From positions 47,127 through 79,126 of the forward strand of contig JAZKCA010000070.1 of the NCBI GenBank assembly GCA_040388275.1: a stretch of 32,000 nt of DNA. The letters are read 5' to 3'. Source of the stretch: Pseudomonadota bacterium (GTDB lineage Bacteria; Pseudomonadota; Gammaproteobacteria; Burkholderiales; Burkholderiaceae_D). The position numbers and the translations under genes were made by a program. Below the pieces are notes generated by a model. That model ran no database searches, was not told the origin of the DNA, and saw only the letters and a program-made list of their open reading frames with translations. Positions 2,726 through 32,000 of this stretch are shown here, one piece after another; the first letter of the stretch is position 1; every line of letters starts with the position of its first letter.

Positions 2726-3031
2726 TCAGCGTTTGCGAGAGTGCAGCAGGTCGCGAACTGTTTCCAGCAAGCCATCTGCGACTTTCTCTGAATTGACGTT
2801 GAACTGGCCATCGGCGATCGCCAGCTTGATGCGTTCGACCTTTTTGGTGTCGAACACGGAATTGCTGCTGCCCACGGCCGCGGCCATGGCCTGGCCCTGC
2901 GAGGACAGGCGTACGCTGTCGGTGCTGGCCGGTACTGCGGCGCCAGCCTTTTCAGCCGTCTTGGCCCCGGCCGCCGGCGTATTTGCCGCCGGCAGGGGGG
3001 TATTTCCTTTAAGTGGCTCGTTAATTTTCAC
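2726..3031 (-). CDS. flgM: Anti-sigma-28 factor FlgM
   Basis: 101 aa with a disordered Ala/Pro-rich N-half and the typical C-terminus KVERIKLAIADGQFNVNSEKVADGLLETVRDLL. GTG start at 3031 with AAGGA 8 nt upstream. Confidence 0.9.
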   Translation of the reverse strand: MKINEPLKGNTPLPAANTPAAGAKTAEKAGAAVPASTDSVRLSSQGQAMAAAVGSSNSVFDTKKVERIKLAIADGQFNVNSEKVADGLLETVRDLLHSRKR

Positions 3032-3080
3032 GGCATCGTCCTTTTCTGCTCGGAGTGGGAAACTCCATGGTCTGCACTCT

Positions 3081-3107
3081 GTAACGGCCTTGTGGCCAGA
3101 AACTTTA
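3081..3107 (-). promoter_or_regulatory. Sigma28 (FliA) class-III type promoter for flgMN
   Basis: The minus strand reads TAAAGTTT-ctggccacaag-GCCGTTAC. The -35 is exact, the spacer is the canonical 11 nt, and the -10 matches 6 of 8 against the enterobacterial consensus TAAAGTTT-N11-GCCGATAA. The -10 lies about 50 nt upstream of the flgM GTG, in the flgA-flgM gap. Confidence 0.75.
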
Positions 3108-3137
3108 GCGCGACCCGCAGGTCCTTGTTCATTCTGC

Positions 3138-3833
3138 CTAGAATACCACTTCTACCAGCCCGCCGGTCCTGGCGACGCCGCTGAGGATGGCGCCGCCCGG
3201 GGTGCGCACCTGCACCACCTGGCCTTCGCCGGCGCTGCCGATGGCGCGCGCCTCGGCCGACACCCGAAAGCCGGCGCCGGACGAGACTACCCGCACCGCC
3301 TGGCCTTGCTGCACCACGGGTTTACTGCGCAACAGGTCGGCGCGCAGCGGCGCGCCCGACGCGAGCGACATGCTGCTGGTCTTTCCCACGGCCTGGGCCG
3401 GGTCGGTCAATACGCCGTTCGGCAGCGCGGCCAGGTCGCCTTCGACCATCACCAGCTGGGAAGCGTCGATGGTCTGTCCCTGGACCAGCGGCACGGCGGC
3501 GGCCACGTAGGCGGCCTTCACGCTCACCTGGGCCTGGATATAGATGGTCCACGGGGTCGGCGCGCCGCAGCGCACGCCCACGGTGGTCTTGCCCCAGGCG
3601 CGCGCGCCCGGCTGCTGGAACGCTTGCGGCGCCGCGCAGGCGGCCAAATTCATGCGCTGGTCGAGCGCGCCGACCGTGATGGTCGCCGGGCCGGGCAAGC
3701 CCGCGCTCTGGGCCTGTAAATATTGCTCGGCCACGGCGCGCAAGGCGTCGAGGTCCTGGCGCGGGGCGGCCTGCTGCGCCAACGCCAGCGCGCTGAGCAG
3801 GGAGAGCAGGAAGATCAACAATGTATTTTTCAT
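3138..3833 (-). CDS. flgA: Flagellar P-ring assembly chaperone FlgA
   Basis: 231 aa. Signal peptide MKNTLLIFLLSLLSALALA. The C-terminal SAF-like region is ...VVQQGQAVRVVSSGAGFRVSAEARAIGSAGEGQVVQVRTPGGAILSGVARTGGLVEV. It is divergent from flgB. Confidence 0.9.
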   Translation of the reverse strand: MKNTLLIFLLSLLSALALAQQAAPRQDLDALRAVAEQYLQAQSAGLPGPATITVGALDQRMNLAACAAPQAFQQPGARAWGKTTVGVRCGAPTPWTIYIQAQVSVKAAYVAAAVPLVQGQTIDASQLVMVEGDLAALPNGVLTDPAQAVGKTSSMSLASGAPLRADLLRSKPVVQQGQAVRVVSSGAGFRVSAEARAIGSAGEGQVVQVRTPGGAILSGVARTGGLVEVVF

Positions 3834-4016
3834 CAGGGCGGCCTTTCGAGTGCATCCATCTTAGGCCTCGCGCGCGCCGTCCGAAACCCTGAATAGCCGC
3901 GTTTTACGGTGGCTTATCGCCCGATCGCCGCCAGCCCGACCCCCGTATCATCGATCCTGTCATAAAGGTCAATGCCCCACATCCGGCGGCAGAGGCTGAT
4001 GAATACGGAGCCTCAC

Positions 4017-4439
4017 ATGATTGGCAAACTCGACGAATATCTGCGCTTTAACGAAACCGCCCTGAGCATGCGTGCCCAGCGCCAGGAGTTAATCGCGTCC
4101 AACATCGCCAACGCCGACACCCCCAATTACAAGGCCCGCGACATCGATTTCGCCAGCGCGCTGCAAGGTGCGCTGACCCGCAACACGCCGCCGGCAGGCG
4201 TGCCCACCCGCAGCGCCCCGGGCCATCTGCCGGGACTGGGGCAGGGCGGCGACTTCCTGGCCAACGGCACGCCGGTCCTGTACCGCGTGGCCGCCCAGGG
4301 CAGCGCCGACAACAATACGGTGGACATGGATGTCGAGCGCAACCAGTTTGCCGACAACGCCCTGCGCTACGAAGCGGGCATCACACTGATCAACGCACAG
4401 ATCCGCGGCATGATGACCGCGATCCAGGGAGGCAGCTAA
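4017..4439 (+). CDS. flgB: Flagellar proximal rod protein FlgB
   Basis: [42 protein letters not shown]... carries the rod-family ANxxTxGYK-like N-motif. The ATG at 4017 has GGAG 7 nt upstream. The ORF-track start at 3972 is a likely over-extension. Confidence 0.92.
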
Positions 4440-4441
4440 TC

Positions 4442-4843
4442 ATGTCGCTATTTAATATATTCAATGTGTCCGGTTCGGCCATGAGCGCCCAGGCCCAGCG
4501 CCTCAACACCGTCGCCTCGAACCTCGCCAATGCCGACAGCGCCACCAGCGCCAGCGGCGAAGCCTACCGCGCCAAGCAGGTGGTGTTCGAGGCCGTGCCC
4601 ACCAATGGCGCCGGCACTGCGGTGCGGGTGCAGCAAGTGATCGAGGATGCGTCCCCGCTCAAGCAGGTCTACAACCCCAAGCACCCGCTGGCCGACGACA
4701 AGGGCTATGTGGCCATGCCGAACGTGAACGTGGTCGATGAAATGGTCAACATGCTGTCGGCCTCGCGCTCTTACCAGACCAACGTCGAAACCATGAACGC
4801 AGCCAAGACGCTGCTCAACAAAACCCTGACCCTCGGTCAGTAG
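4442..4843 (+). CDS. flgC: Flagellar proximal rod protein FlgC
   Basis: 133 aa: [33 protein letters not shown]... and the C-terminal [23 protein letters not shown] rod-family signature. Confidence 0.95.
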
Positions 4844-4857
4844 GAAGAGAAGCCGCC

Positions 4858-5571
4858 ATGTCCACCGTTCAAGCCGCAGTGCCGTTCGTCTCGCAAGACT
4901 TGCTCAATTCCGTCAACGCCAAGAAGAAGGAAGTGGTGGCCGGCAGCGTCGAAGCCGATACCGACAAGTTCATGACCCTGTTGATCACGCAGATGAAGAA
5001 CCAGGATCCGATGAACCCGCTCGACAATGCCCAGATCACCAGCCAGCTGGCCCAGTTGTCGACCGTCACCGGCGTGAACAAGCTCAATACGACGCTCGAA
5101 TCGCTCAAGGCCAGCTACCAGTCGTCCGAAGCGCTGCAGGCGGCCAATATGATCGGCCGCGGCGTGCTGGTGGCCGGCGGCAAGGTCGGCCTGTCCGAGG
5201 GCAAGGCCATCATGGGCGTCGAGATCGTCAGTCCTGCCGACCAGGTCGAACTGATCATCACCGACCCGTCGACCGGCAAGGATGTGCAATCGATCAAGCT
5301 GGGCCCGCAACAGCCCGGCGTGGTGCCGATCGCGTGGGACGGCGTGCCCGACCGTACCAAGCTGGACGCGGCCGGCAAGCCGATCACGCTCAAGGACGGC
5401 AACTACCTGATCCGCGTGGTCGCCACTCGCGGCGACGAAGTACTCAAGGACGCCAAGTCGCTCGCTTTCGACAGCGTGGCGTCGGTGACCACCAGCGCCA
5501 AGGACGGCGTGAAATTGAATTTGCCCACCCTGGGCGTGGTGTCCATGGCGGACATCAAACAAATCTTGTAA
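4858..5571 (+). CDS. flgD: Hook capping/scaffold protein FlgD
   Basis: 237 aa with the conserved FMTLLITQMKNQDPMNPLDNAQITSQLAQLSTV motif. It sits between flgC and flgE. Confidence 0.93.
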   Translation: MSTVQAAVPFVSQDLLNSVNAKKKEVVAGSVEADTDKFMTLLITQMKNQDPMNPLDNAQITSQLAQLSTVTGVNKLNTTLESLKASYQSSEALQAANMIGRGVLVAGGKVGLSEGKAIMGVEIVSPADQVELIITDPSTGKDVQSIKLGPQQPGVVPIAWDGVPDRTKLDAAGKPITLKDGNYLIRVVATRGDEVLKDAKSLAFDSVASVTTSAKDGVKLNLPTLGVVSMADIKQIL

Positions 5572-5607
5572 GCGCAGCCGCATTTACTTTTTTATCAGGA
5601 GAACACC

Positions 5608-7125
5608 ATGTCTTTCCAACAAGGACTTAGCGGCTTGAACGGCGCTGCAAAATCACTCGACGTTATCGGCAACAACATCGCCAACGCCAGCACCGTCGGT
5701 TTCAAGGGATCGCAAGCCCAGTTCGCGGACGTGTACGCCAACTCGCTCAACGGCGCCGGCGGCAACCAGGCGGGTATCGGCGTGAAAGTCTCGCAGATCG
5801 CCCAGCAGTTCACCCAGGGTAATATCGAAGCGACCAGCAATCCGCTCGACATCGCCATCAACGGCGGCGGCTTCTTCCGCACCACGGTGTCGGGCGCCAC
5901 CCAGTATTCGCGCAACGGCCAGTTCTCGCTCGACAAGAACGGCTTCATGGTCAACGCCCAGGGCGCCCAGCTGACCGGTTTCCGGGCCGGCCCGACCGGC
6001 TCCATCCTGGCCGGTTCGCCGTCGCCGATCCAGATCAACACGGCCGACCTGAAGCCGGTCGCCACCACCCGCGTCGACACCGAAATCAACCTCGACTCGG
6101 GCAGTCTGGTGCCGGCCACGTCGCCGTTCAACGCGGCCGACCCGACCACGTACAACAAGCAGACCCCGATCGACGTTTTCGACAGTCTGGGCAATGCGCA
6201 CGTGATGTCGACCTTTTATGTGAAGACCGCCGGCGGCGAGTGGGATGTCTACAGCGCCATCGACGGCGTCGAAATCACCAACCAGGAAGTGGCCGCCGCG
6301 GCCCAGACCGACCCTGCCTCGCAAACGGCGCGCGACAATTTCCAGGTCGCCGCCACCACGCCGCCGGGCAACACCGGCCCGGAAGCGATCGCCTACGCCA
6401 GCGCGGCCGGCAATGCGGTGCGCAATGCGGCGGCGGCCGCCGGCGCCACCCCGGCCACCCAGCTGGCGATCCAGAACGCGGCCAACAGCGCCGGCACCAC
6501 GGTCGGCATCACCCCCGACGAAATCGACCTGCTGATCGCCGCTGCCGTGAGCGTGCCTGCGGTGCGTACCGGCTACCTGCGCTTTGACACCAGCGGCGCC
6601 CTGAGCTCGGCGGCGATGGCGCCGCAAACCTTGCCGCTGTCGATCGACCTGCCGATTTTCCCGCCGACCGGTTCGCAAGCGCCGCTGACGGTGCTGCTCA
6701 ACTTTGCCAATTCGACCCAGTTCGGTTCGCCCACCAGCGAAAAGAAAACCACCCAGGACGGCTACACCGCCGGCAGCCTGCAGCGCTTCGCTGCCGGCTC
6801 GGACGGCATCATCCTGGGCCAGTACAGCAACGGCCAGTCGCAGGCGCTGGGACAAATCGTGCTGGCGAACTTCGCCAACCCGAACGGCCTGTCGCCGCTC
6901 GGTAACAATGCCTGGGCCGAAACCTCGAACTCCGGTTCGCCCCTGGTTGGCACGCCGAACTCGGGCAGCCTGGGCGTGCTGCAATCGTCGGCGGTGGAAA
7001 ACTCGAACGTCGACCTGACGGCCGAGCTGGTCAACATGATCACGGCGCAGCGGGTGTATCAGGCCAATGCGCAGACCATCAAGACCCAGGATTCGGTCCT
7101 GCAGACGCTGGTCAACCTGCGTTAA
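5608..7125 (+). CDS. flgE: Flagellar hook protein FlgE (enlarged, 505 aa)
   Basis: N-terminus MSFQQGLSGLNGAAKSLDVIGNNIANASTVGFK and C-terminus LEASNVDL-like ...VENSNVDLTAELVNMITAQRVYQANAQTIKTQDSVLQTLVNLR. It carries an Ala-rich insertion at about residues 221-320. Confidence 0.95.
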   Translation: MSFQQGLSGLNGAAKSLDVIGNNIANASTVGFKGSQAQFADVYANSLNGAGGNQAGIGVKVSQIAQQFTQGNIEATSNPLDIAINGGGFFRTTVSGATQYSRNGQFSLDKNGFMVNAQGAQLTGFRAGPTGSILAGSPSPIQINTADLKPVATTRVDTEINLDSGSLVPATSPFNAADPTTYNKQTPIDVFDSLGNAHVMSTFYVKTAGGEWDVYSAIDGVEITNQEVAAAAQTDPASQTARDNFQVAATTPPGNTGPEAIAYASAAGNAVRNAAAAAGATPATQLAIQNAANSAGTTVGITPDEIDLLIAAAVSVPAVRTGYLRFDTSGALSSAAMAPQTLPLSIDLPIFPPTGSQAPLTVLLNFANSTQFGSPTSEKKTTQDGYTAGSLQRFAAGSDGIILGQYSNGQSQALGQIVLANFANPNGLSPLGNNAWAETSNSGSPLVGTPNSGSLGVLQSSAVENSNVDLTAELVNMITAQRVYQANAQTIKTQDSVLQTLVNLR

Positions 7126-19207: not shown

Positions 19208-20584
19208 TCAGGCGAAGGTGTCGACCAGGCCCGGCGATTCGCCCGTGCGCGGGGGCCGCGCGGCGACCCGTGCCTCGGCTTCGGCGGCGCTGCCGCTCGG
19301 GCCCTGCCCGGGTGCGCCGCCGTTGCGGCCTTGCGCTTCACCCTGGGCTTGCTGCTGGCCGCTGCTGCCGTCATGCACGCTGGCGTTGCCCAGCGCGATG
19401 CCATTCTCGCCCATCATCTCGCGCAGCTTCGGCATGGCGTCCAGCAGCGCCTGCCGGACCTCGGGCTGGGCTGCCGCGAAGGTGACGGTGGCTTGGTCGT
19501 TGGTCACGCTCAGCACCACTTGCATCGGTCCCATGTCGGGCGGGTTCAGGGTCAGGGTGGCGCTTTGTTCCTTGCCGGCCACCATCCAGACGATCTTTTG
19601 CGCGACCTGGTTGTCCCAGGCCGGTGTGCCGACGCGCGCGGCGATCCTGTCGGCGGCATCTGCAGCGGACGAGCCTTGCAGCGGGGCAAAGGCGGCCGCC
19701 TGCAGTGGCGTTGCGGCCACGGCCGCGAGCGGCACTTCCTTGGCCGCCAGCGGCTCGGGCAGCACGTCGCGCACGACGGCGACGGCGGGGGCGGCCAGGT
19801 TGGGCTGCACGGCAGGCTTGGCGTCGGTGCGCAGCGTTTGCTCGAGGGGGGCGCGTTCTTGCGGCACGCCCTGGGCGGCGGCGGACGGCGCGCTGCGCGG
19901 CTGGGCCAGGGCGGCGGCAGCGGCCTCCAGGCCCGCTTGCATGGCGCCGTCGACCTTGCCCATCATGTTGGAAAAGGCCGTCTCGGGGCCTTGCGCTGCG
20001 ACCGGTACGGCGGCGCCGGCAGGGCCGGCCGGCAGGGCCGGGGCCAGCAGGCGCGCGCCGCCTCCCTGGGCCGCTGCGGGAAGCTCGGCCAGCGCCGGCA
20101 GGGCGGCTGCGCCCGGCAGCCGGTCGCTGCTCGCCGCTGCCGCCGCGGCGACTGCCGCGGCAATCGCCTGGCCAACAGCGCTCACGGGCGCCGGCTGGTT
20201 GAAGCTGGCCACCATGGCCATCAAGTCGAGCAGGGGATTGGTGGCGGCAGGGTCAGTCGCCACAGCGCCGTCGGCGGCATCCTCGGCCACTGCGCTGGCG
20301 CTGGTGGCCTCGTCGGACGCAGCGGCCTTGGCCGGCGCCGCCGGCTCGGCGGCCTTGTCTTGCTGCGCGGGCTTGGCCGCTGGCTGGGGTGCGGCTGCCT
20401 TGGCCGGCGGGTTGGCCTTGGCCGGCGCCTGCGGCTTGGCCGGCGCGCCCTGCTGCTGGTGCATCTCGCGCGACAGGGCCTGGCTGAACTGGGCGCCGCC
20501 ATCGGCGTTGCCCGACTGGTTGCGTGGAGCGGCAGGGGCGGGCGCGGCGCTGGTCAGCTGGACGGGAAGTGGAGGGCTTTGCAT
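19208..20584 (-). CDS. fliK: Hook-length control protein FliK
   Basis: 458 aa. It has an Ala/Pro-rich central region and the C-terminal domain ...QSATLTLNPPDMGPMQVVLSVTNDQATVTFAAAQPEVRQALLDAMPKLREMMGENGIALGNASV (FliK C-terminal pattern). It follows fliJ. Confidence 0.88.
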   Translation of the reverse strand: MQSPPLPVQLTSAAPAPAAPRNQSGNADGGAQFSQALSREMHQQQGAPAKPQAPAKANPPAKAAAPQPAAKPAQQDKAAEPAAPAKAAASDEATSASAVAEDAADGAVATDPAATNPLLDLMAMVASFNQPAPVSAVGQAIAAAVAAAAAASSDRLPGAAALPALAELPAAAQGGGARLLAPALPAGPAGAAVPVAAQGPETAFSNMMGKVDGAMQAGLEAAAAALAQPRSAPSAAAQGVPQERAPLEQTLRTDAKPAVQPNLAAPAVAVVRDVLPEPLAAKEVPLAAVAATPLQAAAFAPLQGSSAADAADRIAARVGTPAWDNQVAQKIVWMVAGKEQSATLTLNPPDMGPMQVVLSVTNDQATVTFAAAQPEVRQALLDAMPKLREMMGENGIALGNASVHDGSSGQQQAQGEAQGRNGGAPGQGPSGSAAEAEARVAARPPRTGESPGLVDTFA

Positions 20585-26040: not shown

Positions 26041-26400
26041 ATGAATATTGGAGCGATCGACGGCGGGCGCATCGAAGCGATGATCGCCCAGCTAAAGGCG
26101 GCCTCGACCAAGCCAGGCACGGAGGTGGCGACCGCCGCGCCGGGGCAGAGCGTGGGCGGTCCGGGCGGGGTGGCGAAGGTCAACTTCGCCGATGCGCTGA
26201 AGCATTCGATCGAGGAAGTGAGCGACGCCCAGCTGGCCGCAGGCGCCAAGGGCAAGGCCTTCCAGATGGGCGACGACTCGGTCAGCCTGTCGGACGTGAT
26301 GATCTCGATGCAGAAAGCGAGCATCGGCTTCCAGGCCAGCGTACAGGTGCGCAACAAGCTGGTATCTGCTTACAACGAGATCATGAACATGCAAGTCTAG
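26041..26400 (+). CDS. fliE: Flagellar hook-basal body complex protein FliE
   Basis: 119 aa from MNIGAIDGG... (AGGAGAA RBS). The C-terminus is SLSDVMISMQKASIGFQASVQVRNKLVSAYNEIMNMQV. It is divergent from fliF. Confidence 0.92.
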   Translation: MNIGAIDGGRIEAMIAQLKAASTKPGTEVATAAPGQSVGGPGGVAKVNFADALKHSIEEVSDAQLAAGAKGKAFQMGDDSVSLSDVMISMQKASIGFQASVQVRNKLVSAYNEIMNMQV

Positions 26401-26406
26401 TCCAGC

Positions 26407-26549
26407 CGACATCGAGGTCAGACCTGAATCGCGACATCGAGGTCAGACCTGAATCGCGACATCGAGGTCAGACCTGAATCACGTGAATCGCGTCGTTTAG
26501 GTCAGACCTGAATGACTGACCAAGATGGCATCTTCGAGGTCAGACCTGA
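26407..26549 (+). repeat. REP array: five same-orientation copies of core GAGGTCAGACCTGA, including three tandem 25-bp units
   Basis: CGACATCGAGGTCAGACCTGAATCG occupies 26407-26431 and 26432-26456. The third unit, 26457-26481, differs only in its last base (A). Further cores lie at 26499-26513 and 26534-26549. The array starts 7 bp after the fliE stop. Confidence 0.9.
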
Positions 26550-26659
26550 TACGCGGCAGGTCCTCAAGTCAGGTTATCTTGCGCACAGTTGACGCCGCAC
26601 CGCAAAGGAGAAAACTTAAAAGATATCGTGAAGGTCGGTCCAATCGTCCTTCTTTTTCC

Positions 26660-27343
26660 ATGAGCAACCATCCACGCCTCGTTCTAAAAAATGTTCCGCT
26701 TCATATCGTTCAGCGGGGAAATAATCGTAATCCCTGCTTCTTCTCGAGAACCGATTACCTGGTCTACCTCTCGATGTTGGCTCAGGCCGCTTCTGAATCC
26801 GGCTGCCGCGTGCACGCCTACGTGCTCATGACAAATCACGTGCATATTCTCGCTTCGCCAGATGAAGTGACGTCGCCCGCGGGGATGATGAAGGGCCTGG
26901 GGCAGCGCTACGTAAAATATGTGAACCGGCGCTATGGCCGTAACGGTACCTTGTGGCAAGGGCGTTACCGATCTTGCCTGGTGGACAATGAATACTATTT
27001 TATGGTCTGCCAGCGTTACGTGGAACTAAACCCTGTGCGAGCTGGACTAGCGCGGGATCCGACGGAATATGAGTGGTCCAGCTACCGGTCCAATGCTTAC
27101 GGTTCGATCAACCGGACTATCACGCCGCATTGCATCTACACCGGACTTGGTGGACAGGAACTCGAACGGCAGTCGAATTATCGGGCGCTCTTCATGGAGG
27201 CAATTCCCGAATCGTCGCTTGCGCAAGTGCGGGATGCGACCAATCGCAACAGCGCGTTTGGTTCAATGCATTTTCTTGATGAAATCGAGAAGACTTTTGG
27301 CCGCGACCTGACTCGTCGAAATCTCAAGCGTAAGCGCGATTGA
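26660..27343 (+). CDS. rayT: REP-associated tyrosine transposase (RAYT; IS200/IS605-type Y1 HUH transposase family)
   Basis: 227 aa from MSNHPRLVLKNVPLHIVQRGNNRNPCFF. The HUH motif is in YVLMTNHVHILA and the catalytic-Tyr helix is QRYVELNPVRAGL. The gene is flanked by REPs. The track start at 26525 would run through the REP array. Confidence 0.85.
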   Translation: MSNHPRLVLKNVPLHIVQRGNNRNPCFFSRTDYLVYLSMLAQAASESGCRVHAYVLMTNHVHILASPDEVTSPAGMMKGLGQRYVKYVNRRYGRNGTLWQGRYRSCLVDNEYYFMVCQRYVELNPVRAGLARDPTEYEWSSYRSNAYGSINRTITPHCIYTGLGGQELERQSNYRALFMEAIPESSLAQVRDATNRNSAFGSMHFLDEIEKTFGRDLTRRNLKRKRD

Positions 27344-27370
27344 CAATGACGCCATTGCTCATAGAGATAT

Positions 27371-27427
27371 GGTCGACCTCAAAATCAGGTCTGACCTGGA
27401 ATCCAAGAATCAGGTCTGACCTCGATG
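27371..27427 (-). repeat. REP copies in reverse orientation downstream of rayT
   Basis: ATCAGGTCTGACCTGG (27384-27399) and ATCAGGTCTGACCTCGATG (27409-27427) are reverse complements of the upstream REP core. A degenerate GGTCGACCTC lies at 27371-27380. The repeats sit between the rayT stop and the ycgR stop. Confidence 0.85.
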
Positions 27428-27434
27428 TGGAAAC

Positions 27435-28193
27435 TCAGGCCAGGCCGGCGAGGCGGGCGTTGCGTTCGCGCTCGAGCTTGGTGATGTAGCGTTGCACCTG
27501 GGCCAGGCCGCCACGCGTGAGGTTGACGAATTCCATCCCCAGGCGCCGGTTCGGCTTGCCGTTGAGCAGGGTCAGGTCGAGCGAGTTGCGCACCTGTAGC
27601 GTCATCGGCACCGGGCCGATCTCGGGCAGGTCGAGCCGGCAGCCGAGGTAGTTCAGGCCGATCGTGTTGTCCAGTTCCATCTTGGCGTCGAGCAGGGCGA
27701 TGCCGCCGCAGCTGATGTCGGCCAGCGGGAACACGGCAATGCCGCCGCCTTGCTGCGGCGGCATGGTCAGCGATACCCGCACCGGGTTGCTGACCGGGGT
27801 GTCCATCCGGTAATACTCGCGCCGCTGCAGGCGCACCATGGTTTGCGGAATCGGCATGCTGAACGCCGCGCTGCCCTCGAACATGCTGGCCTCGATGCCA
27901 GGCCCGGCAAACAAGATGCGGATCTTGTCGAGCGTGGTCTCGAAACGCAGCCCGCTCGCCGCCAGCGCCCGCAGATTTTGTTCCTTGTTGATCGAGCAAT
28001 CGAGAATCAGCTGGTCGCCGTCCGCGTCGACCTCGAGGATCGAGGTGACGCACACGTCGGCCTCGCCATGGATCAACATGCGGATCAATTGCTTTTTTTC
28101 GCCGATGGCGCGCAGCAAGGCGATGATTTCGCGGCGCGAGACGATTTCGAAATCGTGCCAGTTCTCTAATGTTGCATCGTGAATTGGTTGCAT
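27435..28193 (-). CDS. ycgR: c-di-GMP-binding flagellar brake protein YcgR (PilZN + PilZ)
   Basis: 252 aa. The PilZ signatures RREYYR (RxxxR) and DISCGG (DxSxxG) fall at 27702-27824. The N-terminal YcgR-type domain reads FEIVSRREIIALLRAIGEKKQLIRM. Confidence 0.88.
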   Translation of the reverse strand: MQPIHDATLENWHDFEIVSRREIIALLRAIGEKKQLIRMLIHGEADVCVTSILEVDADGDQLILDCSINKEQNLRALAASGLRFETTLDKIRILFAGPGIEASMFEGSAAFSMPIPQTMVRLQRREYYRMDTPVSNPVRVSLTMPPQQGGGIAVFPLADISCGGIALLDAKMELDNTIGLNYLGCRLDLPEIGPVPMTLQVRNSLDLTLLNGKPNRRLGMEFVNLTRGGLAQVQRYITKLERERNARLAGLA

Positions 28194-28209: not shown

Positions 28210-28545
28210 CTAAGGTTCGATCAACAAAGCCGTGTCCGGCGGGGGCGGCGGGGTGCCATGCGAACGTTGCGCGGCTTCAACATGATATAGCCATGCCAGC
28301 AGTTCCGCAATTGCCCGATACAGGGCCGGCGGGATTTGTCGGTCGAGGTCCACATCCATCAGCAGCGATACCAGTTCCTTGGACTCGTGCACGAACACGC
28401 CGGCTTCGCCAGCGCGCTTGATGATCTGTTCGGCGATCAGCCCCTGGCCCTTGGCCACCACCTTGGGCGCGCCTTCGCCGTCGCGGTAGGCCAGCGCCAC
28501 GGCCGACAGCTTGCGGCGCGGCAGGGGGCGCGGGGTCTCGCTCAT
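28210..28545 (-). CDS. Stand-alone FlhB C-terminal-domain-like protein (EscU/YscU/FlhB switch-domain family, no TM region, no NPTH site)
   Basis: 111 aa from MSETPRPLPRRKLSAVALAYRDGEGAPKVVAKGQGLIAEQIIKRAGEAGVFVHESKELVSLLMDVDLDRQIPPALYRAIAELLAWLY. It is collinear with the FlhB region that follows the NP|TH cleavage site (E. coli ..NPTHYAVALQY..APKVLAKGAG...IPATLYAAVAEVLAWVY). The ATG overlaps the upstream stop (ATGA). Confidence 0.85.
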   Translation of the reverse strand: MSETPRPLPRRKLSAVALAYRDGEGAPKVVAKGQGLIAEQIIKRAGEAGVFVHESKELVSLLMDVDLDRQIPPALYRAIAELLAWLYHVEAAQRSHGTPPPPPDTALLIEP

Positions 28546-29777
28546 GCGTCGGCGTCGGCGGCGCGGATGGTCAGCCCCGCCAGCGGCGTGCCGGCCGCGT
28601 CCAGCGACAGGCCGAGCGCGCCGGCGTGCTGGCGCAGCAGCGCGCCGACGGCGCCGTCGCCGGCATCGATATGGATCTGCAGGCGCTGCCCCGACAAGGT
28701 GACGCGGGCGTCGATCTGGCCCAGCGCGGCGAAGCGCAGGCGCACGCTGCTGTGCCACGCGGGCTCCGGCTCGGCGTCGCCGGAAGCGCCGCTGTCGGGC
28801 TCGGGGTCGTCGCGCGCGATGTCCCAGGACAGGTCCTGGCCCGGCCAGGCCTGGCCCTGCCAGGCCACGCGGTGCTGTTCGTGGGTCTGCAGTTGCAAAT
28901 CGATCAATTGGGCGGTGGCCGGATCGGCCAGCGCCGCCGGCAGGCGCGTACCGTCCGGGGCCGGGGCAGCCGGCGGGCGCTGCATCTGCGGTTCCTGGCC
29001 AAGTTCGGCCCGGCTGCGGGTGCCGCTGGCCCATTCGGCCAGGTGCGATTCGTAGAACAGGCCGCTCTTGCCGAGCACGTCCTTGAGGGCGGCGGCCAGC
29101 ATCTCGGGCGCCAGCGGCGGCCCGGTCAGCAGCGGCGCGCGTCCCAGCAGGGCGGTCGGCGCGGCGCCGCCACTCAGCTGCGAGGCGCCCAGCACGCTGC
29201 CGAGGATCTTGCCGGCCGCCGACAAGGTGGCCGGTTCGGTGCCCGCGCCCAGCGCCGGCAGCTGGCCGGCCGGGGTCAGGGGCGCCTTGGCCAGCAGCGC
29301 CGCCGCGTGCGCGCTGCTGCCGACATTGGGCGCGCTGGCGCCGTCGGCGGGGGCGGCCAGCCGTGCTTCGGGCGGCGCCACGCGGGCCGCGCGCGCGCCG
29401 GCCAGGGCCGGCTCGGGCAGCGCCGGGCGCGCCGTCTCGCTCGCCAGTTCGGGGCGCGCTTCGGCGTAGGCGCGCATGCCTGGCTGGGAATGGACTTCGA
29501 AAGTGGGACGCGGCTCGAGCGCGACCAGGGTCAGCGCCACCTGGCTGCCGACCTGGGTCGCGACCGGCAATTGCATGCGGGCGGTCGCGCCCGCGACCTT
29601 GACCAGGAAGCTGCCGTCGGTGAATTTGGAGAGTATGTCGGCCGGCATCGACTTGCCCAGCATGGTGGCAAGCGAGCGCTGGAACGCTTCCTGGCGCGCA
29701 TCGGTGGCGCCCTCGACCGCGGCCGTGGACGCAATGCGCCCGACCGCAGCAATGCTCAGGTCGTTGCGCGGCAGCAT
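28542..29777 (-). CDS. FliK-like protein (second hook-length-control-type protein; Flg_hook-like C-terminal domain)
   Basis: 411 aa with a long Ala/Pro/Gly-rich linker. The C-terminus WHSSVRLRFAALGQIDARVTLSGQRLQIHIDAGDGAVGALLRQHAGALGLSLDAAGTPLAGLTI follows the same L.L.P..LG...V.L......V.F.A pattern as the FliK C-domain at 19208..20584. The assignment is by pattern only. Confidence 0.65.
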   Translation of the reverse strand: MLPRNDLSIAAVGRIASTAAVEGATDARQEAFQRSLATMLGKSMPADILSKFTDGSFLVKVAGATARMQLPVATQVGSQVALTLVALEPRPTFEVHSQPGMRAYAEARPELASETARPALPEPALAGARAARVAPPEARLAAPADGASAPNVGSSAHAAALLAKAPLTPAGQLPALGAGTEPATLSAAGKILGSVLGASQLSGGAAPTALLGRAPLLTGPPLAPEMLAAALKDVLGKSGLFYESHLAEWASGTRSRAELGQEPQMQRPPAAPAPDGTRLPAALADPATAQLIDLQLQTHEQHRVAWQGQAWPGQDLSWDIARDDPEPDSGASGDAEPEPAWHSSVRLRFAALGQIDARVTLSGQRLQIHIDAGDGAVGALLRQHAGALGLSLDAAGTPLAGLTIRAADADA

Positions 29778-29787
29778 GGCCTAGCGC

Positions 29788-30117
29788 TTAGGCGCCGTAC
29801 GCGTCTGCCAGGCGCCGTTCGGCCCCGCAGCTGTTGATCAGGGTGGCCAGTTCCGCCATCCAGGGCGTGGTCAGGTCGCGGATTTCGCGGTCGTGCGCGA
29901 GGATCTGGTGGATCATGGCGACCTTGCGCGCGCGCAGCGCCGGCGGCAGCGCGGCTGCGGTTTCGTTTTGCTGCAGCGTGGCGACGTGGTCGGCGCAATG
30001 CGCCTCGAGCTCGGCCAGGTTTTCCCAGTCGCGCACGCGGGCCGCGGCCAGCATTTGCCCGGTCAGGTCCGACATGGCCTGGTACACATTGATAACTTGT
30101 TCACTATTCATCATCAC
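29788..30117 (-). CDS. fliT: Flagellar chaperone/regulator FliT
   Basis: About 107-109 aa helical protein directly after fliS: ...VINVYQAMSDLTGQMLAAARVRDWENLAELEAHCADHV...DREIRDLTTPWMAELATLI. The start is GTG at 30117, or ATG at 30114 or 30111, overlapping the fliS stop. Confidence 0.72.
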   Translation of the reverse strand: MMMNSEQVINVYQAMSDLTGQMLAAARVRDWENLAELEAHCADHVATLQQNETAAALPPALRARKVAMIHQILAHDREIRDLTTPWMAELATLINSCGAERRLADAYGA

Positions 30118-30590
30118 GCGCTCACAAAGCTGGCCGCGCGCGGCGCCAGGCTGTCGTAGGCCGCGGCCCGGCGCACCGGCTCCGCTGCGGGGGCGCTGAC
30201 CTTGTTGCCGATCTCTTCCCAGGCGCTCTTGATGTCGGCCAGCAAGCCGTGCACTTCGGTCAGGATGGCCTGGTCGTTGGAAATATTGGCCAGCAACAGG
30301 CGCCGTCCCATGTAGTCGTACAGCGAATCGAGGCTGGTGGCGATCTCGCCGCCGGCTTTCTTGTCGAGACTGGCGCGCATGCCGTTTTCGATGATCATGA
30401 TGGCTTTCGAAATGGCATTGCCCTTCTTTTCGATCTGGCCGGCCTGCATGTGGGCCGCGGCGGCCGTGATGGCCGCCATCGCGCCCTCGAGCAGCATGAG
30501 GATAAGCTTGTGGGGACTGGCTGCCACCACGCCGGTTTCGAGGCCGACCTTGGCGTAGGCGTTGGCGCCATTATGCGACGATCCAAACAT
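30114..30590 (-). CDS. fliS: Flagellin-specific export chaperone FliS
   Basis: 158 aa: AYAKVGLETGVVAASPHKLILMLLEGAMAAI...IEKKGNAISKAIMIIENGMRASLD...GGEIATSLDSLYDYMGRRLLLAN. AGGA RBS. Confidence 0.93.
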   Translation of the reverse strand: MFGSSHNGANAYAKVGLETGVVAASPHKLILMLLEGAMAAITAAAAHMQAGQIEKKGNAISKAIMIIENGMRASLDKKAGGEIATSLDSLYDYMGRRLLLANISNDQAILTEVHGLLADIKSAWEEIGNKVSAPAAEPVRRAAAYDSLAPRAASFVSA

Positions 30591-30619
30591 GGGTGTTTCC
30601 TTTCAGGTTAGTAGCGTTC

Positions 30620-32000
30620 TTAACCGCTGATCATGCTGCTCAGTTGCGACAATTGCTGCGTCAAGAAGCTGCTGGTGGTATTCATCTTGCTGATGGTCAG
30701 GTCGAGCGCGGTGAACTGCGCGCGGTAGCGCTTTTCCACGACGTTCAGGCGCGCCGTCAAATCCTGCTGGGTCTTGGTCAAGCCCTTGATCGAGGCGGAA
30801 ATACCGTCGGTGCGCGCCAGCAGCGAGCCGCTGGTGCTCAGGATCGAGGTGGCCAGGGTGTCGAACTGGTGCGCATAGCCTTGCGAGTAATTGACCGTGC
30901 CGCGCGTGCCCAGGGCGCCGCCGGCGACCGTCATCGCCAGTCCGGCCGAGTTGCCGCTGCTGCTGGTGAGCACCTGGCCGTTGCCGGTGGCCGGCAAGCC
31001 GTTGATGGTGCCGCCCACGTCCAGCCCGGTCAACACGCCGGGGCCCGTGGTGTCGAAATTCAGGTTGGCCTGGCCGTTGCCGCCGGTAATCGCAATGGTC
31101 GATGCCGAGCCAAATTTGTTCGACATCATCGACAGCACGCCGCCCGATTCGGTGACCGCCACCGCCGAGCCTGGCGCCGAGAACAGGACGTTGCCGTTGA
31201 TCTTAGATTGCACTTCGGCCGCCAGCGCGGCCGCGTTGGCATAGGTTTTCTGGCTCAGCGTGATGGTGGCGGTGATGCCGTTGAGCTTGACTTCGAGCGT
31301 GTCGTTGGTGGCGTCGACCGCCAGGCCGGCCGGCGCGGTGCCGGTCGAGGTACCCTTGGTGGCCAGCTGCGACACGTCGATCGCGTAAGCGCCCGGCTTG
31401 GTGGAGGCGGAAAAGCCCTTGTAGCTGACCAGGCTGTCGCTGCTCTTGCCGACCGAGGCGAACAGGCCGGCGAAATCGGCGAAGTTGTTGGTGATTGCAT
31501 TGCCCAGCTTGGTCGCGTCGACCGCCAGCGAGCCATCCTTCTGGATCGCCACGCCGATGTCGGACAGGCGCGAAAACGCGCTGGCGCCGCCGGCGACCGG
31601 GGCCGCCAGCACGGCGCGCACCTGGCCTTGCATGCCGCGCACCGACGCTTCGCCATTCAAAATGGCGGCTTGCTTGGTGCTGGCGTTGTAGGCGGTGGCG
31701 TCGACGAAGTTCTTGCTGATCTCGTTGTAGGCCTTGACGAAGTCGTTGACCGCGGTGGTGACCGCGGCGGTGTCGCGCGCGATGGTGACCATGGTCGGGT
31801 CGGCGTTCAGTTTGAGCAAATTGAGCGTGACGCCGCCGATCACGTCGGTCACGCTGTTGCTGGCCTTGGAAATGGCGATGCCGTCGACCGTGAATTCCGA
31901 ATTTTGCGCGGCCGCTTTTTGCGCCAGTCCCTGGGTGCCGGCCGGGTCATGGTTGAGCAGGGTCGACAGGCCGGTATCGGGCGCCGTATCGGCGACCGAA
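30620..32000 (-). CDS. fliD: Filament cap protein FliD (HAP2), 5' end outside the window
   Basis: The C-terminus is ...LTARLNVVEKRYRAQFTALDLTISKMNTTSSFLTQQLSQL. The frame stays open upstream of the track's GTG at 31852. By hand translation it reads ...NSEFTVDGIAISKASNSVTDVIGGVTLNLLK, the classic FliD motif, up to the window edge. Confidence 0.92.
   Translation of the reverse strand, partial: SVADTAPDTGLSTLLNHDPAGTQGLAQKAAAQNSEFTVDGIAISKASNSVTDVIGGVTLNLLKLNADPTMVTIARDTAAVTTAVNDFVKAYNEISKNFVDATAYNASTKQAAILNGEASVRGMQGQVRAVLAAPVAGGASAFSRLSDIGVAIQKDGSLAVDATKLGNAITNNFADFAGLFASVGKSSDSLVSYKGFSASTKPGAYAIDVSQLATKGTSTGTAPAGLAVDATNDTLEVKLNGITATITLSQKTYANAAALAAEVQSKINGNVLFSAPGSAVAVTESGGVLSMMSNKFGSASTIAITGGNGQANLNFDTTGPGVLTGLDVGGTINGLPATGNGQVLTSSSGNSAGLAMTVAGGALGTRGTVNYSQGYAHQFDTLATSILSTSGSLLARTDGISASIKGLTKTQQDLTARLNVVEKRYRAQFTALDLTISKMNTTSSFLTQQLSQLSSMISG

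Follow-up and report, generated by a model that had tools for sequence, protein, structure and literature searches.

A FliK-type protein encoded immediately upstream of a protein made up of FlhB-CC only, the C-terminal sub-domain produced by cleavage of the export-gate protein FlhB, has been described in Pseudomonas putida KT2440, where PP_4328 (fliK2) and PP_4329 (flhX) form a bicistronic, FliA-dependent class IV operon that is conserved throughout the genus (Leal-Morales et al., bioRxiv 10.1101/2021.08.29.457346). That study of the P. putida flagellar cluster calls FliK2 uncharacterised, traces the name FlhX for FlhB-CC-only proteins to Pallen et al. (2005) and, in its account of the earlier work, credits Wand (2006) and Smith (2009) with the result that FlhX of Helicobacter pylori partly replaces FlhB-CC. 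Comparative studies routinely score FlhX as part of the flagellum's type III secretion system, and a 'flhX-fliK' pair has been mentioned for Nitratiruptor. Here, two overlapping genes at positions 28210-29777 of a 32,000-nucleotide stretch from a Pseudomonadota bacterium assigned to the Burkholderiaceae_D (GCA_040388275.1, contig JAZKCA010000070.1, positions 47,127 to 79,126; this whole stretch is the window) are almost certainly fliK2 and flhX, a conserved two-gene flagellar accessory module. The locus is another copy of a known, named module in the arrangement typical of the Betaproteobacteria and is not a discovery; the novelty implied by an initial annotation of the window gives way to a name that dates from 2005 and to a pair already designated fliK2-flhX in P. 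putida.

The described switch between FliK and FlhB provides the frame for comparison. Rod and hook subunits, like FliK, carry a gate-recognition motif (GRM, Fxxx-phi) that docks into a hydrophobic pocket of FlhB-CC (PMC4183434; PMC8983047), and in Salmonella FlhB-CC holds the gate in early mode and is required for the export of early substrates (PMC13344023). A proposal of June 2026 has FliK switching export by ejecting FlhB-CC, a step for which the last residues of FliK are essential (PMC13344023). The pair in the window and the parts of its two proteins are the following (ORF, open reading frame; AF2, AlphaFold 2; pLDDT, predicted local distance difference test).

28542..29777, minus strand: fliK2, encoding a 411-aa protein with a FliK-type T3S4 domain (ORF list)
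28210..28545, minus strand: flhX, encoding a 111-aa soluble FlhB-CC homologue (ORF list; protein start MSETPRPLPRRKLSAVALAY)
28542..28545, minus strand: ATGA overlap of the fliK2 TGA and the flhX ATG (read directly in the sequence)
28288..28503, minus strand: FlhX core, aa 15-86, on FlhB 274-347 (alignment to Salmonella FlhB)
29670..29684, minus strand: FliK2 FQRSL, aa 32-36, an Fxxx-phi motif (56-homologue alignment)
29448..29690, minus strand: FliK2 N-terminal folded beta domain, aa ~30-110 (AF2, six strands, pLDDT 87-96)
29118..29447, minus strand: FliK2 disordered Ala/Pro/Gly-rich linker, aa ~111-220 (pLDDT <50)
28980..29066, minus strand: FliK2 middle motif SGLFYESHxAEWxxGxRxxxxLxxEPQMQ, aa 238-266, helical (alignment and AF2)
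28563..28880, minus strand: FliK2 T3S4 (switch) domain, aa ~300-405 (Pfam; AF2, pLDDT 74-94; Foldseek)

Both domain calls made in the initial annotation hold above the Pfam cut-offs. FliK2 matches Flg_hook (PF02120) over residues 336-408 (E=1.2e-10, 41.5 bits; cut-off 29.8) and FlhX matches Bac_export_2 (PF01312) over residues 15-86 (E=1.8e-17, 64 bits; cut-off 24.4). FliK2 has 640 homologues, with PF02120 in every one, and a word-index search returned 5082 homologues of FlhX. For FlhX there are also 3794 representatives at 50% clustering, of which the top 150 are nearly all stand-alone proteins of 70-180 aa.

FlhX is a soluble protein that reproduces, on its own, the cleaved C-terminal part of FlhB. 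Its match covers profile positions 262-335 of the 335 in Bac_export_2, which correspond to the CC part only, and it aligns to residues 274-366 of Salmonella FlhB (crystallised CC chains 3b0z_B and 3b1s_B; E=3e-12 to 3b0z_B). The CN segment and the transmembrane (TM) region are absent by profile match, alignment and hydropathy, the highest Kyte-Doolittle 19-residue mean being 0.93 and no TM segment being found in FlhX. There is no NPTH autocleavage site, the aligned positions reading RKLS, and no NPTH is conserved across 46 FlhX family members. The protein thus mimics cleaved FlhB-CC, as had been annotated; the further claim that it starts exactly at the cleavage site stands for the replacement of NPTH by RKLS and fails for the boundary, since homology begins only at residue 15, which aligns with S274 of Salmonella FlhB, four residues past the N269|P270 bond, behind a leader of 10-14 residues without FlhB homology.

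Four residues of FlhX (A26, P27, A80 and L83) are identical to the aligned A286, P287, A341 and L344 of FlhB. Across 46 diverse FlhX sequences A80 never varies and conservation of P27 and L83 is 90% or more; A26 is invariant only in an 11-sequence alignment of closer relatives. The pair in the window shares with the Salmonella FliK/FlhB-C switch pair a T3S4 fold, an FlhB-CC fold and identical pocket-aligned residues, and FlhX differs from Salmonella FlhB in having neither the tether to the membrane gate nor NPTH. The FlhX of H. pylori (HP1575) is likewise a stand-alone soluble FlhB-CC homologue without TM segments or an autocleavage site; it has experimental support as an FlhB-CC substitute, whereas FlhX here is a homologue identified from its sequence. 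The remark in the initial annotation that FlhB-C-only proteins have no established function was accordingly right in part, HP1575 being a functional spare part. In an otherwise low-confidence AF2 model of a FliK2-FlhX fusion (described below), pLDDT is highest (80-92) at the end of FlhX (aa ~96-111, 28210-28260; PPPPPDTALLIEP), in its C-terminal helix and Pro-rich tail; in the alignment this tail falls on Salmonella's Pro-rich FlhB-CCT segment.

The anatomy of FliK2, taken from an alignment of 56 homologues and an AF2 model (mean pLDDT 66.5, with confident domains), comprises four parts: an N-terminal beta domain, a variable linker, the SGLFYESH helix motif and a C-terminal T3S4 switch domain. 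Residues 1-25 are predicted to be disordered and are followed by a helix (aa 27-37) containing F32-Q-R-S-L36, with F in 48 and L in 49 of the 56 homologues at the two Fxxx-phi positions, R28 and G41 invariant and Q29 and R34 near-invariant. Some 30 residues from the N-terminus, this motif resembles the GRM of early substrates in form and position, a resemblance that may serve as a lead. The beta domain, with its six strands at aa ~43-107, has many invariant residues (D54, G55, V59, R67, L70, P71, G77, P89, R90, P91 and F93) and, in Foldseek, weak OB-fold-like matches only. Behind it lies the linker, which had been annotated as Ala/Pro/Gly-rich and is so (52% over residues 96-215), with a length of 81-169 residues among the 56 homologues; this disordered stretch (residues 111-220) is preceded by the folded domain at residues 30-110. 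In the middle motif, S238, G239, F241, Y242, E243, S244, W249, G252, R254, L259, E262 and P263 are invariant across the 56 sequences, and a hidden Markov model (HMM) of this region, K2_mid, matches each scanned locus (see below) that has the fliK2 middle region on its contig.

The T3S4 domain is recognised by structure as well as by profile, the top Foldseek matches being the PscP switch domain (5cuk; probability 1.00, root-mean-square deviation 1.9 A) and the FliK C-domain (2rrl; probability 0.99); a PDB sequence search with FliK2 gave no match. Its relation to the canonical FliK encoded elsewhere in the window is remote: BLASTP found no significant match between the two proteins, and hhalign of the FliK2 family against that FliK aligned the right domains (canonical residues 322-406) but at a probability of 2.4% (E=0.019). 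The pair is paralogous to FliK and FlhB, as the initial annotation put it, at the level of profile and fold and not beyond. Compared with canonical FliK, FliK2 adds the folded N-terminal domain, the SGLFYESH motif (absent from the FliK of the window) and an 18-residue acidic insertion within the T3S4 domain (aa ~323-340, 28700-28800; DDPEPDSGASGDAEPEP), which was identified by hhalign and is kept family-wide but variable in sequence in the 56-homologue alignment. It also lacks a C-terminal tail: the T3S4 domain ends 3-6 residues ahead of the stop, with a family median of ~3 residues, versus 46 residues after Flg_hook in canonical FliK.

The adjacency of the two genes, which the initial annotation had proposed checking across the Betaproteobacteria, was followed in 80 loci, with one genome per species, annotated by phmmer and by HMMs built from the FliK2 family. 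The seed was the 11-sequence FlhX subset, the 46-sequence alignment being too diverse, and the 80 loci are biased to Beta- and Gammaproteobacteria. A FliK2 homologue is encoded directly upstream of flhX in 79/80 loci, and the pairing is far beyond chance because it is repeated to this extent. The neighbourhood is nearly as constant, with fliT directly upstream of fliK2 in 52 of the 59 loci having enough sequence and ycgR next to flhX on its downstream side in 67 of 78. Among the taxa are Oxalobacteraceae, Nitrosomonas, Nitrosospira, Thauera, Azoarcus, Dechloromonas, Azospira, Methylophilaceae, Sulfuricella, Hydrogenophilales, Acidithiobacillus and a Methylococcaceae metagenome-assembled genome (MAG), so that the adjacency reaches beyond the Betaproteobacteria. 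The ATGA overlap reported for the window is present and is kept in related loci, flhX starting 1-35 nt inside the 3' end of fliK2 in ~70/75 of them, a count that used the start codon nearest the fliK2 stop and is biased toward overlap. Over 72 fliK2-flhX pairs, median identity is 70% for FlhX, 53% for the FliK2 middle motif and 39% for the FliK2 T3S4 domain; by these medians, FlhX is much more strongly constrained than FliK2.

The lone exception (L081, Candidatus Accumulibacter phosphatis NC_013194) has a transposase in place of fliK2, which suggests that the fliK2 site was disrupted by a mobile element. Over positions 3000-6300 of that locus flhX-ycgR is kept, with transposase-like ORFs and a 597-aa ORF on the opposite strand upstream. 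A metagenomic protein of 410 aa (P0303), with Flg_hook at residues 207-279 and Bac_export_2 at 324-379, was considered as a FliK2::FlhX fusion, which would constitute Rosetta-stone evidence, and was discounted, its first ~25 FlhX residues being degenerate; a frameshift across the stop/start overlap in a metagenomic gene is the most likely explanation.

Six more distant FlhX homologues, at 38-46% identity, were also looked up; their genes lie away from flagellar clusters, behind that of a protein with a T3S4-like C-terminal end. In four of these loci (L082, L086, L087 and L088) the upstream protein is above the Pfam Flg_hook cut-off, and the pair forms a two-gene unit by itself. In L082 and L088 a fliK2-like gene and flhX are paired amid unrelated housekeeping genes, and the pair therefore moves independently of the other flagellar cluster genes. 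The partners in these two loci share the FliK2 architecture (a segment rich in beta-hairpins at the N-terminus, a GLF/LYE motif and, at the end, a T3S4 domain), and distant members of the FliK2 family range from ~450 to 740 aa. In Negativicutes flhX lies in the order rplS-lepB-rbgA-rnhB-X-flhX-yraN-comM, with gene X absent in L090 and present in L089 (3133-4008) and L084 (802-2922). Neither of the two X proteins has a Pfam match, Flg_hook included; they share a C-terminal domain (BLASTP E=8e-18) that is T3S4-like by eye, and the X protein of L084 weakly matches the FliK2 T3S4 HMM (domain E=8e-4). YlqG-like proteins may on this basis be cryptic relatives of FliK2. The YlqH proteins of Bacillus and other Firmicutes (TIGR00789, flhB_rel) are like FlhX in domain and size, and TIGR00789 is the best NCBIfam model for FlhX, at 83.3 bits under a cut-off of 117.35. 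Firmicute ylqH copies lie in a housekeeping context, rplS-lepB-rbgA-rnhB-(ylqG-like)-ylqH-yraN-comM, whereas flhX here is in a flagellar operon, and the partner upstream of ylqH, when present, has no Pfam Flg_hook match, unlike FliK2.

In the window the pair sits amid late flagellar genes, as had been annotated, with fliD, fliS and fliT upstream and ycgR downstream, and the canonical fliK, also correctly placed, lies in a separate unit between fliJ (upstream) and fliL (downstream).

30620..32000, minus strand: fliD, 3' part, the gene running past the window edge (ORF list)
30114..30590, minus strand: fliS (Pfam FliS, E=1e-37)
29788..30117, minus strand: fliT (Pfam FliT, E=3e-25)
27435..28193, minus strand: ycgR, flagellar brake (Pfam PilZN and PilZ)
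19208..20584, minus strand: canonical fliK, in the fliF-fliR unit (Flg_hook, E=1.4e-23, aa 329-412 of 458)

An independent assembly of the same organism (contig L001) repeats the order flaG-fliD-fliS-fliT followed by the 411-aa and 111-aa genes, and there FliD is complete (671 aa) with flaG before it. Identical FliK2 and FlhX proteins are recorded from a 'Pseudomonadota bacterium' MAG, and the closest named relatives of both proteins are from Massilia, Telluria, Janthinobacterium and Pseudoduganella, all Oxalobacteraceae. Only 10 bp separate the fliT stop (29788) from the fliK2 ATG (29777) and 16 bp the flhX stop (28210) from the ycgR ATG (28193). No terminator-like or sigma-70-like site was found between fliT and fliK2, no sigma-28 -10 box (at most one mismatch) on the coding strand over 29778-30700, and no match to TAAAG-N-GCCGATA, which was searched as a promoter of fliK2 itself; none of these searches points to a promoter of its own for fliK2. 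Transcription of fliK2-flhX is probably read-through from fliDST, as the arrangement suggests. In P. putida, to which the locus is likened by gene arrangement and published description, the pair is instead a separate bicistronic operon at the cluster edge; here there is no room for a promoter of its own, and the block fliDST-fliK2-flhX-ycgR is typical of the Betaproteobacteria.

Elsewhere in the flagellar region, the interval 26383-27446 is an inserted REPIN-RAYT element. Between fliE and ycgR is the gene of a REP-associated tyrosine transposase (RAYT; 26525..27343, plus strand; Y1_Tnp E=1.3e-14, NCBIfam REP_Tyr_transpos), and the palindromic unit AGGTCAGACCTGA occurs on both sides of it, as five copies over 26383-26558 and two inverted copies over 27383-27432. 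At the edge of the flagellar cluster and adjoining flgA, a gene on the minus strand (744-1820) encodes a 358-aa Aspzincin_M35 protein (lysine-specific metalloendopeptidase). Between this protease and flgA, a 213-aa ORF on the plus strand (2150-2791) has no Pfam match at E<=0.01 and is a candidate gene in a high-GC stretch with many overlapping ORFs.

As to what the module does, the checkpoint, decoy or titration role suggested in the initial annotation may hold, and we tentatively favour a FliK2:FlhX complex that forms late in the cytoplasm and works on the export switch, a plausible account that falls short of being probable. Through the overlapping stop and start codons, FliK2 and FlhX would be made together in roughly equal amounts and would form a cytoplasmic complex copying the contact of FliK-C with FlhB-CC, possibly with a second contact in which the Fxxx-phi motif of FliK2 sits in the hydrophobic pocket of FlhX. 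Because the pair would be transcribed with the late genes fliD, fliS, fliT and ycgR, the complex would appear after hooks are finished and could buffer the export-specificity switch: FlhX, whose pocket would accept FliK as well as rod- and hook-type substrates, would soak up leftover early substrates and keep surplus FliK off the gate. FliK2 would have the fold that binds FlhB-CC without the destabilising tail of FliK, and would therefore hold and regulate FlhX instead of ejecting it. Commitment to filament-type export would in this way become sharper and irreversible.

Several points weigh against this account. The late timing of fliK2-flhX in this organism would follow from operon position only, and the account assigns no role to the conserved N-terminal domain and SGLFYESH motif of FliK2. 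An AF2 run on a fusion of FliK2(215-411) and FlhX with an unpaired alignment gave no usable interface (pLDDT 62.7; predicted template modelling score 0.34), and this uninformative run is not evidence either way on whether the two proteins bind. The FlhB residues concerned, A286, P287, A341 and L344, are those that Evans et al. reportedly described in 2013 as the hydrophobic pocket binding the gate-recognition motif. The analogy with H. pylori, where FlhX is credited with restoring export when FlhB-CC has been deleted, also suggests that FlhX can work at the gate, which favours a spare-part reading over a pure decoy.

In that reading, which is less likely although a serious contender, FlhX docks on FlhB-CN at gates that lack their own FlhB-CC and restores the docking site for early substrates, for example for repair, for continued export of FliK or hook-type substrates or after premature loss of FlhB-CC, with FliK2 delivering FlhX or later removing it. 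With FlhB-CC deleted, HP1575 still allows flagellar export (Wand et al. 2006, as credited in the P. putida preprint), and Salmonella FlhB-CC is physically lost at the switch, a loss that abolishes early export (PMC13344023). The CC fold and the pocket-aligned residues are kept in FlhX, and its high conservation is as expected of a part that fits the gate. However, an early-mode lock put back in place during late expression would oppose filament assembly, FliK2 is without the C-terminal tail on which ejection depends in the 2026 model (PMC13344023), and binding of FlhX to FlhB-CN is assumed here. A further reading takes up the initial annotation's label of a second ruler: FliK2 would be exported like FliK and measure some other structure or condition, with FlhX as its private cytoplasmic receptor. 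FliK2 does have the T3S4 domain, a long disordered Ala/Pro-rich middle region and, after ~25 disordered residues, an Fxxx-phi motif (aa 32-36) at the place that the GRM occupies in early substrates. This role is nevertheless doubtful and, in our assessment, very unlikely: the N-terminal beta domain is confidently folded (pLDDT >90) where the FliK ruler is disordered, the linker varies from 81 to 169 residues in close relatives and distant members span ~450-740 aa, the C-terminal tail and any BLASTP similarity to FliK are missing, and an intact canonical FliK is also present. That the two genes are decaying duplicates without function is scarcely credible. The great divergence of FliK2 from FliK (no BLASTP match, and an hhalign probability of 2.4%) and the score of FlhX under the TIGR00789 cut-off would fit decay, but both ORFs are intact in nearly all loci, synteny holds in 79/80 genomes from many families, FlhX has a median identity of 70%, and there are invariant motifs and thousands of homologues, so that the conservation data effectively refute a relic or pseudogene.

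Hundreds of genomes carry annotations of the pair, which has a name in the literature and, to our knowledge, is absent from the enteric models E. coli and Salmonella. Few flagellar gene pairs that are widely conserved lack an assigned function, and the module is among them; given the 2026 ejection proposal (PMC13344023), a late soluble copy of FlhB-CC together with a tail-less T3S4 protein is an obvious candidate modulator. Experimental handles are at hand in the FlhX residues identical to the reported FlhB pocket, in the Fxxx-phi and SGLFYESH motifs of FliK2 and in its lack of a tail. A broader and rather unlikely reading would make FliK2-FlhX an ancient, self-contained 'soluble switch pair' across phyla, acting at the step of FlhB-CC ejection, with FlhX serving as a replaceable FlhB-CC that takes up early substrates with a GRM or fills gates left empty, and FliK2 as its dedicated holder and regulator; the range of the pair takes in Beta- and Gammaproteobacteria, unplaced lineages where it lies outside flagellar clusters and, possibly, the YlqG-like/YlqH proteins of the Negativicutes. 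If true, this would be an unrecognised layer in the early-to-late export switch of most flagellated bacteria except the enteric models.

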